Assembly: GCF_014280175.1 (NCBI RefSeq)
Contig: NZ_CP047931.1
Span: forward strand, 450,001 to 482,000
Source of the DNA: Synechococcus sp. A15-28
Lineage (GTDB): Bacteria; Cyanobacteriota; Cyanobacteriia; PCC-6307; Cyanobiaceae
Direction: 5' to 3'
Length of the DNA stretch: 32,000 nt
Positions 13,659 through 31,869 of the stretch are shown one piece after another; the stretch's first letter is position 1; the number at the start of each line of letters is the position of its first letter. A program made the translations under genes and the position numbers. The notes beneath the pieces were generated by a model, which had not been told where the DNA came from, searched no databases, and saw nothing but the letters and a program-made list of their open reading frames with translations.

Positions 13659-15305
<1,647 letters not shown>

Positions 15306-15365
15306 AGCAATCAGAGAGGCTCTAGGGGCTACCCAACCCTTTGCCTTTGGTCTTCAAAAACATTT

Positions 15366-15389
15366 GGGATGCTCCGGCATCCCTTTTTT
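15366..15389 (+). terminator. intrinsic terminator of groESL
   Basis: GGGATGC (15366-15372), TCCG loop, GCATCCC (15377-15383), then TTTTTT (15384-15389). Confidence 0.85.
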
Positions 15390-15402
15390 ATTGCCTGCTC
15401 TT

Positions 15403-15411
15403 GGGGGGGGG
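15403..15411. repeat. G9 homopolymer at the left island junction
   Basis: Nine consecutive G residues, read directly from the sequence. They are immediately followed by the short hairpin GATGC-GTGAAAA-GCATC. Confidence 0.9.
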
Positions 15412-15531
15412 ATGCGTGAAAAGCATCTAAATAATGCGAAGCAGACTAAATTATGCTGCTGATATTACAATCTACCACCCTTGAAAATCTTCTACGTCTC
15501 AACACGCATGAAGTTGCAATCGCAGTGATCC

Positions 15532-15568
15532 TATTTCACCCCAAAGCAAATTGCTTTAGGGTGAAATA
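15532..15568. repeat. 37-nt near-perfect palindrome in the island's non-coding part
   Basis: TATTTCACCCCAAAGCAA-A-TTGCTTTAGGGTGAAATA. Seventeen of 18 arm positions pair. A T-rich run follows on the plus strand. Confidence 0.85.
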
Positions 15569-16009
15569 TGTTGTTTGATTTATGTGGTATTCATATATAG
15601 TAATGATATGGCTTCAACTGCGTCACCTATTCGCGTTTTTTAGTGGCTTGTATGCATTTTGAGGTTAGCTCTACGATTATTGCGATGCCGTGGTTTTGGT
15701 GTATCGCTATTGCTCCACTGAAGCAACAACAAATTTTTTCGAGATGACGTCCCTAAGTTTATATAAGCTCATGTACTACAAAAGGTCATTAGGATCGTTG
15801 GCTTTGTAACTATTGGTTGTTTAGCGCGACACGTATGCAAACGAATTCTTTAAATTACAATTACCATAGCATCTTTTGGCGATTGAGAAAAATTAATTGT
15901 TACTTTTACTTCCCTTCGAAACTGGTACGTAAATAATTGAATCTATTGCAGCCCGGAACTAATGATGCTTGCAAGAGTTCATAATGATTTCCTTGGACGC
16001 ATTTGCTAA

Positions 16010-16795
16010 TTAAGTAACATCTTTCACGACAATGCAGGAGTGCTTGATAAAGCTTATCATTGCTATTGATTGCAGATAGTCTTCTTCACTTTGCAACAAA
16101 CTTTTCAACGATTTGACGTCTGCAATAGTCAAACCAAGATTTTCCAAAAAGTTTTCGTCACTCGGATGTTCCCGGCGATCACCTGTTAGACGGCTTGCAA
16201 GGTATTGAAAAAAGCTGAAGGCGTCTAGTTTTTCTTTTCGTGCAAGTCCATGCCCTTGTCGAAATGAACCAAATGATGTATGAATGTCCTCAATGATATA
16301 GATACCGCCTTTATTTACTGTTTTAAATAATCTTTCGAAGCACTTGATTTGATGGTCCCAGTGATGAGAGGCGTCATCGATCACGATGTCATATGAATGG
16401 TCTTGAAGGGTATATAAAAATTTCTCATTGCCTAGGTCTCCGACAAAAGTTTTTACGTTTGGTATTAAATCCAGTTGTGTTGCAGATGATTTTATGTCGG
16501 CAATAAAAATCTCTGAGTTGTCTCCAAAATATCTTGACCATATTTTTGCAGATGCGCCAATGTTCCATTCCGGTCCTGCTCCAAGCTCGAGCAATGAGAT
16601 GTCCTTTTTCCCACGAAATTGCTTGAAAAAAATTTCATATTTCCTGAGATAATCATGCCCTTCCCCGCGAGATGAAAATCGTATATCTTTGCTTTGACTC
16701 CGATCTTTTGATGCTTTGTCACAGTTGTGCTCTAGGCCAAGTTGATCAAGTTCACTTTGGGAAGTTGGTATAATTAACAACTGCCAAGTGCTCAA
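16010..16795 (-). CDS. class I SAM-dependent methyltransferase (sugar/glycan O-methyltransferase-like)
   Basis: Motifs seen: SELDQLGLEHNCDK at the N-terminus, motif I LLELGAG, then IVIDDASHHWDHQ and GGIYIIEDIHTS. The only available starts are TTG codons (16795 or 16780). There is no in-frame ATG before the conserved domain. Confidence 0.75.
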   Translation of the reverse strand: MSTWQLLIIPTSQSELDQLGLEHNCDKASKDRSQSKDIRFSSRGEGHDYLRKYEIFFKQFRGKKDISLLELGAGPEWNIGASAKIWSRYFGDNSEIFIADIKSSATQLDLIPNVKTFVGDLGNEKFLYTLQDHSYDIVIDDASHHWDHQIKCFERLFKTVNKGGIYIIEDIHTSFGSFRQGHGLARKEKLDAFSFFQYLASRLTGDRREHPSDENFLENLGLTIADVKSLKSLLQSEEDYLQSIAMISFIKHSCIVVKDVT

Positions 16796-16879
16796 ATTAC
16801 AGTGCTCAATTTTATGTGAAAAAGTAGTGCACCTGGATGCCGGCCATGATATTGTATTAAAGCATCACATAATCAGTAT

Positions 16880-18349
16880 TTGAATCCTCGTAACGCCGGG
16901 GCGTTGGATGTATGCAGTCGTGATTTAATTGCGGGTTGGTTTTCTGTCGAGACTGGCACAGTGAGTCTCTCAATTGAAGGAATCTTATTTTCTCTTCAGG
17001 CTTCAATAAATCGACCTGATGTAGCTGCACATGGATTTCCCCTAAAGTCTGGCTTTCGTCTTAAAAGACAAAAGCACACAAAAATCTTTCGGTGGCTCGA
17101 CCATTGCTTGCAGAATCATCATGCAAGTATTCAATTAAGATGTTCTGCTAATAGTCCGTTGTGTTTGGCTGAGCGTCAGGTAACTCATAAATCTGACATT
17201 TATCGGAGAGTAAAAACAACAAAATTTGGTGATGAATTGTTTCATTTGTTGGAAGGATCTAAAGTATTAAATTACGACGGTCAAGCGCAGCAGGACGACC
17301 CCTATACAGCCCTACATCTTGGTTTAAGTGAAAAATTAACGGCTTCATGCTGTATTGACGCCTATGTCACCTCCACTTATGGAGTATTTGATCGTCTTGG
17401 CTATCCCTTTCAGGCTGGATTTCTTTGGCGCGGTTGTCGGAATGATGGAATTGAGGATTATCCCTTTGGTAAACCAAGAAAAGTACTAGTTTTCAAGCAA
17501 AGAAGAGTTCGCGCATTTGATCGAGGACTATACATAAGTGCTCTTATACTTAATCACTTTGGACACACATTGACGGAAGGGCTGTCGAGCTTATATCCGC
17601 TATTGTTGTGGAAAAATCAAGGCTTCGACCTTTCAAAAATAACAATTGTCATACCATTTGCATTTAGAAATGAAATTCGCAAATTGGCTGAGTTGTTAGC
17701 AATCCCTGAGGAGTCTTTTGTTTTCCCTGAAGATGAAAGCCAGTTTCTTTATTTTAAAGCTTTGTATATCCCTGACCCGACGATGGTTAATCGACGTTTT
17801 GTATCGCCTATGCATAGCAGTATTGTTAATGCTTATTTCACTTTGTTGAATGCTAATGAAGACTCCAGACCTGTTGGAATTCGAAGTTTTACGGGATCTA
17901 CTAAAGTTTATATTTCGCGGTCCGCTTTGGTTTCACCAAGTAGTCGAAATTACTCTGAGGAAAAGCAGCTAGAGCAACTACTGCAAGCTCGTGGATGGGC
18001 TATTTTTCATCCTCAGGATTATTCTCTTAAGGAACAGTTGGCTGTTTATCGAGGTTCTCAATTTCTTTGTGGTATTGACGGTAGTGCATTTCATGCACTA
18101 TTTGGCTTGAAGAGGATTACCGCAAAAATAATATTACTTACAGAGTCTGAATTTTTGGATAAAGTTTCACCATCATGGAATTATATTTTGCAATTTAACT
18201 CGCAGGGTGTTGACTGGCTGTCGCTGTGCTGCTTTGTCCGTAAAGGACTAAGTCTTCTACTTGATCAAAGCTCATATCAATCGAATCTAATTCTTGCTGA
18301 ACGAATAGATGAGCTCGCAGAGTTTAATTGTGCTGAGCCCAAGAATTGA
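16880..18349 (+). CDS. glycosyltransferase family 61 / DUF563-like protein with an N-terminal GW...RPDV module
   Basis: GT61/DUF563-like motifs are present: FGHTLTEGLSSLYPLL, KVYISRS, and SLKEQLAVYRGSQFLCGIDGSAFHALFG. The N-terminal LIAGWFS...INRPDVAAHGF module is common in glycan-modifying enzymes. TTG start at 16880, with no in-frame ATG before residue ~300. Confidence 0.7.
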   Translation: MNPRNAGALDVCSRDLIAGWFSVETGTVSLSIEGILFSLQASINRPDVAAHGFPLKSGFRLKRQKHTKIFRWLDHCLQNHHASIQLRCSANSPLCLAERQVTHKSDIYRRVKTTKFGDELFHLLEGSKVLNYDGQAQQDDPYTALHLGLSEKLTASCCIDAYVTSTYGVFDRLGYPFQAGFLWRGCRNDGIEDYPFGKPRKVLVFKQRRVRAFDRGLYISALILNHFGHTLTEGLSSLYPLLLWKNQGFDLSKITIVIPFAFRNEIRKLAELLAIPEESFVFPEDESQFLYFKALYIPDPTMVNRRFVSPMHSSIVNAYFTLLNANEDSRPVGIRSFTGSTKVYISRSALVSPSSRNYSEEKQLEQLLQARGWAIFHPQDYSLKEQLAVYRGSQFLCGIDGSAFHALFGLKRITAKIILLTESEFLDKVSPSWNYILQFNSQGVDWLSLCCFVRKGLSLLLDQSSYQSNLILAERIDELAEFNCAEPKN

Positions 18350-19185
18350 ATCATCTCATAATCTTTTGCGAAAAATTCATTGAATTTGGCTCGAAGTTTT
18401 GGCATTCTTTTGATGAATTCTTTGGCAGCCGTTGATGTAGGTAGCTCTTTTCTCTGGATGAGTGAATATGAGTTGATTTTTGCAAGTCTAGGATTATCTG
18501 ATTTAACCCAGCCTGAATCGGGCAATGTTGTGACGTTGATTTTTGGAGGCATGTAGCTGAGATCTAGATGTGAATTCACGAGTTTAAGATCGTCTTGAAA
18601 GTTTTCAATTCGAAGCTGAAGTAATTGAACATTTAACTCTTTAGCGCTTAATATTGTGTGTAATGACTTGGTGTCGGTTATTTGCGGTCTGAAATGTGAA
18701 TTAAGTGCCTGGGGATTGTCTTTATTGGAGGAGATATACCGCAAAAAATTCCTAAATGATAATCCAAAATGACCTTCGCTATTGATGAACGTTTCCTTCT
18801 TATTTCCGCTCTTTGCCTTTCTGATTTCGTGCGTCTTCTCTTCGATGATCTTTTCTAGAAATTGTCTTGAAAAACCTTCGAGGCTGTTGTATTTGTCAAT
18901 GGCCTTTCCTGTGTAGACCACAAATTTATTTATATAGCTACTCAGCATCCGGCTAACTGGGTCTCGTGTTGTCACGATGAGCGTCTTTACACTGCCGGCC
19001 TCAATGAGTCCAGGAAGTTGGGATAGATGAAAGTTGTAGCCTTCGCGCTGTAGAAAGAGCCTTTTGTCGCCTGGAATATTTTTGCGATCCAAAGCATTGG
19101 TGCACCAGTGGCCTAATGATGTGCATGCGCACTTCTCGCTCCAGGTAATTGCTGCTCTCTTGCCCGGAATGAAGTAAAAATTCAT
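18277..19185 (-). CDS. sulfotransferase (Sulfotransfer_2-like)
   Basis: Motifs seen: FIPGKRAAITWSEKCACTSL in the N-terminal PAPS 5'-phosphosulfate-binding-like region, TTRDPVSRMLSSY (RDPxxRxxSxY 3'-phosphate-binding motif), and NSHFRPQ (HxxPQ). ATG at 19183-19185. Confidence 0.7.
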   Translation of the reverse strand: MNFYFIPGKRAAITWSEKCACTSLGHWCTNALDRKNIPGDKRLFLQREGYNFHLSQLPGLIEAGSVKTLIVTTRDPVSRMLSSYINKFVVYTGKAIDKYNSLEGFSRQFLEKIIEEKTHEIRKAKSGNKKETFINSEGHFGLSFRNFLRYISSNKDNPQALNSHFRPQITDTKSLHTILSAKELNVQLLQLRIENFQDDLKLVNSHLDLSYMPPKINVTTLPDSGWVKSDNPRLAKINSYSLIQRKELPTSTAAKEFIKRMPKLRAKFNEFFAKDYEMIQFLGSAQLNSASSSIRSARIRFD

Positions 19186-19228
19186 GAATTAAATCAGCGT
19201 TTTGTGTGGTCGTTCGGGTCTCCAGGTC

Positions 19229-19459
19229 TTATCCCAGCCATCCAGCGCTCAAAATGACAGCCAAGCTCAGAAAGATGGCCAGGCAGGTCCAGGTGACGCG
19301 GTTCAGGGTGGCTTCGGCGCTGCTGGCGCTGCTGAACATCGAGCTGCCGCTGGCTGCCAGGCCGCCCATGCCGTCCCCTTTGGGGCTGTGGAGGAGCACA
19401 AGAACGATCAGCAGAAGACCGCTGCCGATCCAGGTCCAGGACAGGATGGACGTGAGCAT
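19229..19459 (-). CDS. secG: preprotein translocase subunit SecG
   Basis: The 76-aa product has two TM segments and the motif LLHSPKGDGMGG...SS. Its ATG overlaps the gpmI stop (TGATG at 19457-19461). Confidence 0.9.
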   Translation of the reverse strand: MLTSILSWTWIGSGLLLIVLVLLHSPKGDGMGGLAASGSSMFSSASSAEATLNRVTWTCLAIFLSLAVILSAGWLG

Positions 19460-21135
19460 CAGACGGGAAGAGGTAAACGGGCCGACAGTGGCGACGGGTC
19501 GACGTTGGTCACTGGTTCAATCAGGCTACGGCCTGTCATTGCTTCCGGTTGAGGCAGGTTGAGGATCTGCAGCAGGGTGGGAGCAATATCGGCGAGTCCG
19601 CCATCGCTGCGCAGTGTTATGGCGTTGCCGTAGCCGGGAAGCTTGCGCTGTTCACCCTCCACAAGAATGCAGGGAACCGGGTTGGTGGTGTGGGCCGTCC
19701 AGGCCTGACCGTCGGGACCTTGCATCAACTCGGCGTTGCCATGGTCCGCCGTGATCAACATCGTGCCGCCACGGCGGCCGACGGAATCCAGCAGGCGACC
19801 GACGCAGCGATCGACTGTGGCGATGGCCTCGGTGGCCGCATCCATCACCCCGGTGTGTCCCACCATGTCCGGGTTTGCGTAGTTAATCACGATCAGGCTG
19901 TAGGTGCCCTGGTTGATCGCGGCAATACAGCTGTCCGTGAGCTGGTCGGCAGACATGGCCGGTGAGAGGTCATAGGTGGCCACCCGCGGTGAGGGCACCA
20001 GATGCCGCTCTTCCCCCGGCAGCGGTTGCTCGATGCCACCGTTCATGAAGTAGGTGACGTGGGGATACTTTTCGGTTTCTGCCGTGCGGTACTGACGCAA
20101 CCCGGCACCGGCCACCACCTGACCCAGCAGATCGTCCAGGGGTTCAGGGGGGAAGGCCACGTCCACCGGTAAGTCCTGCTCCACCTGGGTGAAGGTGACC
20201 ACCTCCAGCTTTGGTGCATGCCGGCGCTCAAAGCCGTCGAAGTCCGGCAGGCAGAGCGTCTGGACAATCTGGCGCGCTCGGTCCGGGCGGAAGTTGAACA
20301 TCAGAACGCTGTCGCCGTCCTGCATCACGTCGCTGCTCAGGCGCACCGGCTCGAGGAACTCATCGGTGATGCCAGCGGCGTAGCTCTCGGCCAGCAGCTG
20401 CTGCGGGCTCAGGTCGCTGACAGGACGAGTGGGATCGGTATACAGGTCGTAGGCCTTCTCCGTGCGATCCCAGCGCTTGTCTCGATCCATGGCCCAGTAA
20501 CGGCCGCAGATGCTGGCCAGATGACCGACCCCAGCTTCCTCAATCGCCTTTTGCATCAGGGTGATTGAACCCATCGCGCTCTGGGTGGGCGTGTCGCGGC
20601 CATCGGTGATGGCATGGATGGCCACCTTCTGGATGCCGGCCGCAGCGGCCCAGTGGATCAGTCCGCAGAGATGGTTGACGTGGCTGTGAACGCCACCATC
20701 GGAGCAGAGCCCCAGCAGGTGAAGGGTTCCATGGCCGTTGCGCACGCGCTCCGCCAGCTTGGCCAGCGCGGGGGTGTCCTTCAACTGGTCGTCGCGCACG
20801 GTGTCGCTGATCCGCACCAGCTCCTGGCGGATGATCCGTCCCGCACCGATGGTGAGGTGCCCGACCTCGGAATTTCCCATCTGCTGATCCGGCAGTCCCA
20901 CATGGGATCCGCTGGCCTGGATCAGGGTGTGCGGATAGGCATGCCACAGCGCTTCCATCACCGGCGTGTCGCTCTGGCGAATGGCGTTGTGTTCGCTGTC
21001 GTTGCGGTGTCCCCAGCCATCCAAAATGGTGAGAACGACCGGGGCCACTCCCAAGTCGCGTCCTGAACCGTTGGAACTGCTCTGGTCCACGTACCCCCCG
21101 CTCTCGTCGGTTCTTAAGGACTTTTGCAGATTCAA
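19459..21135 (-). CDS. gpmI: 2,3-bisphosphoglycerate-independent phosphoglycerate mutase
   Basis: [26 protein letters not shown] and the C-terminal ITADHGNAE are seen. The start is ambiguous: the leader has no in-frame ATG, and candidates are TTG 21135, GTG 21090, TTG 21054 and GTG 21048. Confidence 0.92.
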
Positions 21136-28759: not shown

Positions 28760-28831
28760 TGGGCGATACTGGATTTGAACCAGTGACTCCTACAATGTCA
28801 ATGTAGTGCTCTACCCCTGAGCTAATCGCCC
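28760..28831 (-). tRNA. tRNA-Val (anticodon GAC)
   Basis: The minus strand reads GGGCGAT TA GCTC AGGGGTA GAGC A CTACA TTGACAT TGTAG GAGTC ACTGG TTCAAAT CCAGT ATCGCCC A. All four stems pair perfectly in a cloverleaf. The anticodon is GAC. CCA is not encoded. Confidence 0.93.
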
Positions 28832-30282: not shown

Positions 30283-31869
30283 ATGTCCAAAGTTCTGGTT
30301 TCCGACCCGATTGATCAGGCCGGGGTCGACATTCTCAGCCAGGTGGCTCAGGTGGACCAGCGTCCTGGTCTCTCCCCCGAGGAACTGGTCAGCGTGATCG
30401 GTGATTACGACGGATTGATGATCCGTTCCGGCACGCAGGTGACCGCTGAGGTGATCGCGGCTGCATCCAAGCTCAAGATCATCGGCCGCGCCGGCGTCGG
30501 TGTGGACAACGTCGATGTGCCGGCCGCCACCCAGCGGGGGGTGCTGGTGGTGAATTCCCCGGAGGGCAACACGATCGCGGCGGCGGAGCATGCCCTGGCG
30601 ATGATGCTCACCCTGTCGCGGCATGTTCCCCAGGCCCATGCAGGCATGCGGGCCGGCAAATGGGACCGCAAGAAGTACGTCGGCAACGAGCTCTACAAGA
30701 AGACGCTCGGCGTGGTCGGGCTGGGCAAGATCGGCTCCCACGTCGCCCGCGTCGCCCGGGCCATGGGGATGGAGGTGATCGCCTACGACCCTTTCATCGC
30801 CGCTGACCGCGCCCAGCAGATGCAGGTGCGGCTCACCGAGCTGGATGAGTTGTTCCGCACTGCGGATTACGTGACGCTGCACATCCCCCGCACCAAGGAC
30901 ACCGAGAACCTGGTGAATGCGGAGCTGCTGCGCACAATGAAACCCACCGCACGGATCGTGAACTGTGCCCGTGGTGGTGTGGTGGATGAAGCGGCCATCG
31001 CTGAGGCCATCAACAACGGCGTCATCGCCGGTGCCGGCCTGGATGTGTATGCCAGCGAACCTCTGGCGGAGGACTCGCCCCTGCGGGCGGTGGAGCGCGG
31101 CCTGGTGCTGACCCCCCACCTCGGTGCGTCCACGGAGGAGGCTCAGGAGAACGTGGCCACTGATGTGGCGGAGCAGATCCGCGACGTGCTGCTGGGGCTG
31201 CCGGCACGCAGCGCCGTCAATATCCCTGGCCTGAGTGCCGAGATCATGGAGCGGCTGAAGCCGCATCTGCAGCTGGCGGAAACCGTCGGTCGCCTGGTGA
31301 GCCAGCTCTCCGGCGGCCAGGTTCAGGAACTGGAACTGCGTTTGCAGGGGGATTTCGCCAACCATCCCTCCCAGCCGCTGGTGATCGCCTCGCTGAAGGG
31401 TCTGCTGGGGGCGGTGCTGGGGGACAGTATCAACTTCGTCAACGCTTCTTTGGAAGCCAAGGCCCGCGGTATCCGCGTGCTGGAGGTGAAGGATGAAGCC
31501 AGTCGCGATTACGCCGGCGGTTCACTTCAGCTGATCAGTCGCGGTGATCAGGGCAGCCGCAGCGTCACCGGCGCGGTGTTTGCCGATGGAGATCTGCGGA
31601 TCACCAGCATCGATGAGTTCCCTGTGAACGTGACCCCCAGCAGCCACATGCTGTTTACTCGCCACCGGGACATGCCCGGCATCATCGGCCAGCTGGGATC
31701 CATGCTCGGTGAGCACAACGTGAACATCGCAGCGATGCAGGTGGGACGGAAGATCGTTCGCGGTGATGCGGTGATGGTGCTGAGCATCGACGACCCGATC
31801 CCCGCAGCGTTGCTGCAGACCGTCACCGCGATTGAGGGCATCCAGGAAGCCCATCCGGTGAGCCTCTGA
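30283..31869 (+). CDS. serA: D-3-phosphoglycerate dehydrogenase
   Basis: MSKVLVSDPIDQAGVDIL..., NAD motif VVGLGKIGSHVA, and a C-terminal ACT-like region. The product is 528 aa. Confidence 0.95.
   Translation: MSKVLVSDPIDQAGVDILSQVAQVDQRPGLSPEELVSVIGDYDGLMIRSGTQVTAEVIAAASKLKIIGRAGVGVDNVDVPAATQRGVLVVNSPEGNTIAAAEHALAMMLTLSRHVPQAHAGMRAGKWDRKKYVGNELYKKTLGVVGLGKIGSHVARVARAMGMEVIAYDPFIAADRAQQMQVRLTELDELFRTADYVTLHIPRTKDTENLVNAELLRTMKPTARIVNCARGGVVDEAAIAEAINNGVIAGAGLDVYASEPLAEDSPLRAVERGLVLTPHLGASTEEAQENVATDVAEQIRDVLLGLPARSAVNIPGLSAEIMERLKPHLQLAETVGRLVSQLSGGQVQELELRLQGDFANHPSQPLVIASLKGLLGAVLGDSINFVNASLEAKARGIRVLEVKDEASRDYAGGSLQLISRGDQGSRSVTGAVFADGDLRITSIDEFPVNVTPSSHMLFTRHRDMPGIIGQLGSMLGEHNVNIAAMQVGRKIVRGDAVMVLSIDDPIPAALLQTVTAIEGIQEAHPVSL

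Follow-up and report, generated by a model that had tools for sequence, protein, structure and literature searches.

How does a block of foreign-looking DNA come to lie between two core genes of a marine cyanobacterium with nothing of its own to move it, and what could it be doing there? The question is raised by a stretch of 32,000 nucleotides (nt) from the genome of Synechococcus sp. A15-28 (contig NZ_CP047931.1, positions 450,001 to 482,000; hereafter the window, with position 1 its first letter). An earlier note on this DNA had pointed out a low-GC island between groEL and secG that encodes a methyltransferase, a family 61 glycosyltransferase (GT61) and a sulfotransferase. The answer developed below, to which we give a probability of roughly 70%, is that the block is a small replacement-type flexible genomic island for surface-glycan tailoring, one of several alleles at this site. 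Two sets of observations carry it: other cargoes occupy the same position in close relatives, and the same island occurs in otherwise divergent chromosomal backgrounds.

Extent, alternative alleles and exchange of the island

The groEL-to-secG interval of A15-28 is 3923 nt long (15306-19228), with a GC content of about 0.39. In 300-nt windows the GC was found to be 0.36-0.43 over 15450-18900, within a drop that spans approximately 15400-19000, as against 0.59-0.67 (about 0.64) in the flanks, and this dip is the sole low-GC stretch of the whole 32 kb. GC at third codon positions (GC3) shows the same step, with values of 0.36, 0.31 and 0.43 in the methyltransferase, GT61 and sulfotransferase genes and of 0.84, 0.82 and 0.78 in groEL, secG and gpmI, so that by both profiles the low-GC island is real. 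Its limits, however, had to be redrawn. They had been placed at 15390 and 19200, whereas alignments of the window with loci that carry other cargo lose their nucleotide homology exactly at the groEL stop codon (15305) and the secG stop codon (19229), and the variable unit is thus the entire interval, from stop codon to stop codon.

Comparison of the site among relatives was undertaken with SecG as the probe, against one genome per species and metagenome contigs, and 160 loci were fetched. The arrangement of gpmI-secG facing groEL is kept in most of these loci where the contig reached groEL, in Synechococcus, Cyanobium and Prochlorococcus. In most Prochlorococcus loci the interval measures only 72-98 nt, at about 0.32-0.34 GC, with inserts of up to 2.3 kb in a few; elsewhere it reaches 4.7 kb. 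Alternative low-GC cargo was found directly past SecG proteins that are 88-100% identical to that of the window. It comprises a GT2_4/GT92-like protein with a coiled-coil open reading frame (ORF) in L006 and L160, an unannotated ORF of 325-332 amino acids (aa) with a GT2 in L168 and L171, a 370-aa unannotated ORF in L151 and L065, and, in L091 and L092, an allele of the sulfotransferase at 52% identity. In more distant relatives the site holds TPR-GT41 proteins, an ammonium transporter, MscL or a DNA methylase, and glycosyltransferases recur among its cargoes. Since close relatives hold different cargo at the same position, the block is neither ancestral nor universal; the earlier note had allowed that it might prove to be shared by all relatives.

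Some of the ORFs adjoining secG (L168:185-1183, L171:218-1195, L151:1490-2602 and L065:6898-8010) begin with HxGxxKTGTT, HxGxHKTGTT or HVGAQKCASSS motifs. These resemble loops that bind 3'-phosphoadenosine 5'-phosphosulfate (PAPS), but the ORFs have no Pfam or NCBIfam match and no mutual similarity, and no claim is made that they are sulfotransferases. Contig L093 stops within secG (SecG 100% identical), and many contigs with the island are only 2-5 kb long; short-read assemblies tend to break near the locus, as is to be anticipated for samples that contain more than one allele.

The island of A15-28 was itself recovered on ten further contigs, at a divergence from the window of 0.2-1.3% (L001, L173-L182); over the entire interval the identity is 99.2-99.8%. 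In every contig with the island secG diverges by 0-1.3%, even where gpmI differs by 7-16%, and the flanks of these contigs differ by up to 16% from the window. In L174 the atpB region is 13.4%, the 5' half of groEL 7.6% and gpmI 16% divergent, with sharp breaks near 14600 and 19460. In L175, where gpmI is 7.3% divergent, the break falls across 19500-20300, and L178 has its breakpoint at 14900-15100. L001 has 14 changes in the last 289 nt of groEL (4.8%), 12 of them synonymous; on the other side of the island its secG and 870 nt of its gpmI are identical to the window, with renewed divergence from near 20330. L173, a metagenome-assembled genome from the same species, keeps about 99.3% identity along its whole length and shows a slight excess of single-nucleotide polymorphisms (SNPs) in the 3' half of groEL. 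The breakpoints vary by contig and always fall within the flanking genes, and the boundary SNPs are mostly synonymous. Replacement flexible genomic islands, which are exchanged by homologous recombination, show this signature (Lopez-Perez 2014, PMC4033161), and the alignments indicate that the A15-28 island, too, has been exchanged across lineages by homologous recombination in its groEL and secG/gpmI flanks.

Recombination through conserved flanks accounts for the missing mobility genes, a question that had been left open before. No integrase or transposase is among the island ORFs, ARAGORN found no tRNA near the island (the nearest is at 28760), and a repeat search around it gave no att-like flanking direct repeats, as the earlier note had observed; PADLOC gave no match to defence proteins for any of the three island proteins. 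Horizontal acquisition, proposed in the same note, is upheld by the foreign composition, by other cargo beside an identical SecG, and by the same island in backgrounds 5-16% divergent. No donor lineage was identified; the nearest relatives of the GT61 protein and the methyltransferase (38-49% identity) come from low-GC islets as well, on contigs that are either high in GC or picocyanobacterial.

Two side observations concern the structure of the region. A 17-nt inverted match, 88% complementary, flanks the island on both sides (15270-15286 and 19362-19378); one arm falls in the groEL tail (Gly-Gly-Met), the other in the secG motif GDGMGG, and a chance likeness in codon content is the likely cause. 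In two contigs, L002 and L004, both from run ERR315862, the GT61 end is joined to gpmI, secG and the sulfotransferase gene in reverse (window 16802-18409 and 19670-18326). This apparent inversion folds back at the convergent GT61/sulfotransferase overlap, comes from one sequencing run and would truncate gpmI, and it is probably a misassembly. The features of the region are collected in Table 1.

Table 1. Features of the groEL-secG region of Synechococcus sp. A15-28, in window coordinates
Feature	Position	Strand	Remarks
groEL, left conserved flank	13671-15305	+	Cpn60_TCP1 258 bits; recombination breakpoints in 3' half
groEL intrinsic terminator	15366-15390	+	7-bp GC-rich stem and 4-nt loop, hairpin 15366-15383 then T-run; -14.1 kcal/mol, z -3.0
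Replaceable unit (entire groEL-secG interval)	15306-19228		from homology limits and island identity across contigs
ORF-less stretch	15391-16009		between convergent 3' ends of groEL and methyltransferase gene
Hairpin with 17-bp stem	15532-15568		in ORF-less stretch; -25.4 kcal/mol on minus strand, z -6.5
Methyltransferase gene	16010-16795	-	261 aa; predicted MycE/TylE-like
GT61 gene	16880-18349	+	Glyco_transf_61
Sulfotransferase gene	18277-19185	-	302 aa; Sulfotransfer_2
secG, right conserved flank	19229-19459	-	SecG 62 bits
gpmI (phosphoglycerate mutase), right flank with breakpoints	19459-21135	-	from nucleotide divergence profiles of L174, L175 and L001

The three proteins and the stretch beside them

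All of the motifs by which the three ORFs had first been recognized were located: LELGAG (69-74), DDASH (140-144) and IIED (167-170) in the methyltransferase, FGHTLTEG (227-234) in the GT61 protein, and HFRPQ (164-168) in the sulfotransferase. The same holds for GIDGSAFH (398-405) in the GT61 protein and TTRDPVSRMLSSY (72-84) in the sulfotransferase. The family assignments made from these motifs also stood, with Glyco_transf_61 and Sulfotransfer_2 matching above their cut-offs and the methyltransferase being placed by Protein Data Bank (PDB) matches to MycE and TylE. None of the three proteins has a 19-residue segment hydrophobic enough for a membrane helix (Kyte-Doolittle maximum at most 1.25), and all three are therefore probably soluble and cytoplasmic.

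The GT61 protein scores 56.3 bits against Glyco_transf_61 (PF04577; cut-off 27) over residues 227-408. At 90% identity its ORF clusters with two A15-28 entries, QNI41566 and WP_222930189 ('glycosyltransferase family 61 protein'); no record of the exact ORF sequence was found. Searched exhaustively with HMMER, 1.84 billion representatives yielded 1363 relatives, of which 25 at E<=1e-30 are 32-41% identical and all aligned from about residue 140. An AlphaFold model made with 32 relatives has a predicted local distance difference test score (pLDDT) mostly above 90 at residues 150-486, which roughly delimit the catalytic region, with residues 1-145 disordered. In the fold search POMGNT2 was the sole return at E<=1e-5, the best 16 PDB matches all being POMGNT2 (E 5e-7 to 7e-6, probability 1.0, TM score only about 0.35). 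The residues G228, H229, R347, P378, Q386, S402 and H405 are invariant in the alignment. On this profile and modelling evidence the protein is predicted to be a glycosyltransferase that adds a sugar. Its second-closest relative (41%) lies at L190:6001-7299, on a TARA contig of about 0.50 GC, alone in a low-GC islet directly after a GMP-synthase-type gene of another picocyanobacterium, the contig also carrying Psb34 and CbiD.

The methyltransferase, called at 256 aa by other gene callers, is identical to WP_186587534 ('methyltransferase domain-containing protein') of A15-28. Its Methyltransf_31 score of 26.7 bits is just below the Pfam cut-off of 27; the assignment was kept because of the PDB matches to MycE (3ssm, E 2.6e-13, residues 25-177) and to TylE (8ia9, E 6.4e-10). 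Tyr208, Asp275, His278 and Asp304 have been reported in the active site of MycE, the Mg2+ ligands included (PMC9275233). If a 20-residue tag offset is assumed for chain 3ssm_A, the last three of these align with D141, H144 and D170 of the island protein. Judged by these alignments, the methyltransferase is related to the catalytic core of metal-dependent sugar O-methyltransferases, and is specifically a predicted MycE/TylE-like protein, of the class that acts on sugar hydroxyls. About 45 clusters of homologues were found, all of them metagenomic, at 36-49% identity.

Homologues of the two proteins tend to be found together. A GT61 gene adjoins a homologue of the methyltransferase gene in five of six independent contexts: the A15-28 window; L090, where a low-GC islet with two GT61 genes lies in a host of 0.70-0.77 GC; L183-185 (0.67 GC), beside a GT4 and an ATP-binding cassette (ABC) exporter; L186:4908-8355 (about 0.32 GC), in a polysaccharide cluster, with an adenosine 5'-phosphosulfate (APS) kinase and a DHHA1-family protein next; and L187 (0.73 GC). 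The remaining context, L086-89, has no adjoining GT61. The pair is thus a recurrent module, and the APS kinase beside it in L186 ties the module to PAPS metabolism in another organism. P0009 of Sulfitobacter mediterraneus (588 aa), a naturally occurring protein in which an FkbM-type methyltransferase is fused to a GT61 domain, lends independent support to a functional coupling of GT61 with O-methylation. Enzymes of the MycE type methylate sugars after their attachment, and the simplest reading of the pair is therefore that the GT61 protein would add a residue and the methyltransferase would then modify it.

The sulfotransferase is identical to WP_186587536 ('sulfotransferase family 2 domain-containing protein') of A15-28 and scores 33.2 bits against Sulfotransfer_2 (PF03567; cut-off 22), a family matched in all three members of its cluster. 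It is a near-orphan, a search of 5.8 billion proteins having returned its own 99% cluster and a single 52% homologue, P0055 (2 clusters). Invariant between the two are ITWSEKCACT (13-22), which lies outside the Pfam alignment, TTRDPxSRMLSSY, which here reads TTRDPVSRMLSSY (72-84), and HFRPQ. We take the first two motifs, as a lead and not as a test, to resemble the 5'-PSB and 3'-PB PAPS motifs of HNK-1ST-type enzymes. The protein is predicted from its family match to be a PAPS-dependent Sulfotransfer_2 enzyme. Its gene begins 43 nt past the secG stop codon, on the same strand and with no terminator in between, and is probably co-transcribed with secG by read-through. Codon 286 is CAG (Q286) in A15-28 and a stop codon in every metagenomic copy, so that the A15-28 protein is 17 residues longer than the common form (302 versus 285 aa); P0055 also ends at the position equivalent to 285. 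The extension, codons 286-302, occupies 18277-18330, and with it the overlap of the GT61 and sulfotransferase genes is 73 nt rather than 22. The 285-aa form is indexed in 121 blocks of the sequence collection, and the A15-28 island allele is common in nature and widespread in ocean metagenomes.

To the left of the three genes, beyond the groEL terminator, whose existence was confirmed (Table 1), lies the stretch of about 620 nt that had been described as empty of ORFs, and the longest ORF wholly within 15390-16010 is indeed only 41 aa. No structured RNA or tRNA remnant was found in this stretch by Rfam (E<=1) or ARAGORN. A pseudogene was also considered; tblastx against the loci fetched by then, leaving out L001 with its copy of the same island, gave no gene relic, relics of genes absent from the compared loci being still possible. 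SNP density among island copies is 0.7-1.3% in this stretch and 0.2-0.7% in the three genes, and it is probably spacer or decayed DNA. The hairpin within it is near-perfect and has no Rfam match; L001 has a T>G variant at 15534 that changes the stem without compensation. Elsewhere in the window, an unannotated 528-aa ORF at 30283-31869 ends 131 nt before the window end.

A probable tailoring cassette for surface glycans, and competing readings

The reading favored here can be put as a sequence of events. A DNA tract spanning the island would recombine through groEL and secG/gpmI and so move between Synechococcus lineages, the island bringing no mobility machinery of its own. In the recipient, the GT61 protein would add a sugar, the MycE/TylE-like O-methyltransferase, which is likely dependent on Mg2+ and S-adenosylmethionine (SAM), would methylate a hydroxyl of the attached sugar, and the PAPS-dependent sulfotransferase, probably read through from secG, would sulfate. 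The product would most likely be a methylated and sulfated side branch or terminal residue of a cell-surface polysaccharide, made at the cytoplasmic face prior to export. The reaction order, the donor sugar, the acceptor, the expression of the genes and the selective agent are inferred; allelic diversity of this kind would be expected for a structure under phage or grazer selection. Low-GC, glycosyltransferase-rich hypervariable islands are known in marine Synechococcus and Prochlorococcus and have been proposed to serve in the avoidance of phages and grazers (Dufresne 2008, PMC2441476; Dore 2020, PMC7522525). The description of the locus in the earlier note as hypervariable and envelope-modifying fits the first of these accounts.

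A number of points weigh against this reading. Genes for export, for a polymerase or for PAPS synthesis are missing from the 32 kb of the window. Metagenome contigs could in principle be chimeric, although this is countered by the agreement of ten independent assemblies. The substitutions among island copies are few, about 10 synonymous and about 10 non-synonymous, and the selection test is weak. The start of the GT61 gene is uncertain, with no ATG in the first 124 codons and called lengths of 489, 462 and 394 aa (starts TTG-1, GTG-28 and TTG-96). Its N-terminal 145 residues have no match in relatives and no confident model; of the four substitutions that island copies show in this part, three are synonymous, which lends weak support to its translation. 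The methyltransferase has no residue aligned to MycE Tyr208, which sits in a MycE insertion missing from the island protein, and lacks a counterpart of the MycE N-terminal domain, the match beginning at chain residue 177 of 419; it is thus a catalytic-core relative and not a MycE orthologue. The Sulfotransfer_2 match is limited to residues 69-170 of the sulfotransferase (profile positions 83-164 of 252). The structure model of this protein, from a three-sequence alignment, has a pLDDT of 35 and is unusable, and neither sequence nor profile searches gave a PDB relative (chance matches only).

The main rival holds that the target of the three enzymes is a surface protein, such as a pilin or a porin, which they would glycosylate before methylating and sulfating the added sugar. 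Among solved GT61 structures, matches were confined to POMGNT2, which acts on an O-mannosyl peptide, and EOGT, another GT61 member, is likewise a protein glycosyltransferase; a cassette without its own polymerase, flippase or initiating transferase also suits such a role. The homologous methyltransferase-GT61 pairs, however, lie within polysaccharide-type clusters (GT2, GT4, UDP-glucose dehydrogenase, ABC exporter), and bacterial GT61 genes have been reported from capsule loci (PMC11641403). The clade III glycoprotein candidates swmA and swmB are, moreover, missing from A15-28 (PMC7522525), and SwmA was for this reason excluded as the acceptor. Modification of a surface protein is on balance unlikely.

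The view that the block is non-functional or unexpressed passenger DNA, hitch-hiking with recombination tracts, draws on several features described above: the unameliorated composition, the 700 nt free of ORFs that follow groEL, a GT61 gene without an ATG start, the mutated sulfotransferase stop codon of A15-28, and a ratio of non-synonymous to synonymous changes among copies that is only mildly below neutral. It is nevertheless quite improbable for an allele that is widespread in ocean metagenomes, with its three ORFs intact in more than 10 independent contigs and its catalytic motifs kept in comparison with homologues at 36-52% identity.

A cassette that tailored a glycolipid or a small glycosylated metabolite, in the way that MycE and TylE modify macrolide sugars, would suit a methyltransferase whose nearest solved relatives are sugar O-methyltransferases of natural-product pathways. 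With no polyketide synthase, nonribosomal peptide synthetase or lipid-synthesis genes in or beside the island, and with alternative alleles that are glycosyltransferases typical of envelope loci, we consider this reading very improbable. Delivery by a cyanophage, as a moron or the remnant of a lysogenic element, agrees with a GC of about 0.39 that resembles cyanophage genomes but is scarcely credible and was rejected, because tblastn against 50,697 phage records gave no match for the sulfotransferase, one weak match for GT61 (23% identity) and methyltransferase matches at no more than about 34% identity, mostly in mycobacteriophages, and because integrase, att and tRNA features are missing and the mosaic breakpoints lie in host genes.

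Within the reading of a glycan-tailoring island, a more specific and rather doubtful proposal can be made. The methyltransferase-GT61 pair and the near-orphan sulfotransferase might constitute a self-contained, portable capping module: a single residue would be attached to a surface glycan already present, at its non-reducing end or on a branch, and would be blocked there by O-methylation and O-sulfation. In that case open-ocean Synechococcus would bear a sulfated, methylated epitope that could be switched by one 5-kb recombination event, and the island would be a minimal unit of surface-antigen switching. It would also be, to our knowledge, the first evidence of glycan sulfation in marine picocyanobacteria.

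Marine Synechococcus ranks among the major primary producers, and the surface diversity encoded in its islands is considered the basis on which it coexists with phages and grazers. In this setting the groEL-secG locus is unusually small and clean, with three genes, exact stop-codon boundaries, several alleles seen in metagenomes, and sequences that directly attest the recent passage of one allele between lineages. It offers a tractable test case, since a 4-kb swap between groEL and secG should alter a defined surface epitope, and could reveal if phage adsorption depends on the methylation and sulfation of one residue. The locus provides a functional lead as well, both for a widespread uncharacterised bacterial gene pair (MycE-like methyltransferase and GT61) and for a sulfotransferase lineage nearly without relatives. 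Much of the background was known: the island genes are annotated in public records, low-GC islands have been described (PMC2441476), and so has recombinational replacement (PMC4033161). What is added here is that a very small hot spot has been delimited exactly and its series of alleles described, together with direct evidence for the cross-lineage transfer of one allele and the methyltransferase-GT61 module; no new kind of system is revealed.

Comparison with known systems

At the level of single proteins, the methyltransferase resembles the macrolide deoxysugar 2'-O-methyltransferases MycE and TylE, in that the catalytic core aligns over about 150 residues and the SAM motif is present. It differs from MycE in size (261 versus about 400 aa) and in setting, which is an envelope-type island rather than a macrolide cluster. 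The GT61 protein shares its Pfam score, the POMGNT2 fold and the invariants G228, H229, R347, S402 and H405 with a family that includes POMGNT2/AGO61, EOGT, plant xylan arabinosyl- and xylosyltransferases, and bacterial DUF563/COG4421 proteins ('capsular polysaccharide biosynthesis'). It differs in being a bacterial protein that is predicted to be soluble and has no signal anchor, and in carrying an extra, unmatched N-terminus of about 145 residues. The sulfotransferase is comparable to Sulfotransfer_2 enzymes of the HNK-1ST/CHST type in its Pfam score and perhaps also in motifs such as xKCACTS (5'-PSB loop) and RDPxSRxxSxY (3'-PB motif). The setting of its gene is unlike that of synechan (xss) in Synechocystis, as it lies outside any large cluster with Wzx/Wzy or regulators; this comparison is one of setting.

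At the level of the locus, the island has in common with those described by Dufresne and Dore a deviant composition and a predominance of glycosyltransferases and carbohydrate-modifying enzymes; those islands, in contrast, were defined at 10 kb or more and often lie near tRNA or mobility genes. With replacement flexible islands, and with O-antigen or capsule loci exchanged by way of conserved flanks, it shares a fixed position among core genes, at which close relatives hold non-homologous cassettes of equivalent function, for the synthesis or tailoring of glycans. Also shared are identical cassettes in different clonal frames, mostly synonymous boundary SNPs and a lack of mobility genes. O-antigen islands are typically 20-60 kb, whereas the present one has 3.9 kb and three genes, which encode tailoring enzymes only; genes for a polymerase, a flippase or the synthesis of sugar nucleotides are missing. 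A further difference is that the interval is nearly empty (72-98 nt) in some lineages, so that the site also acts, in part, as an additive locus.

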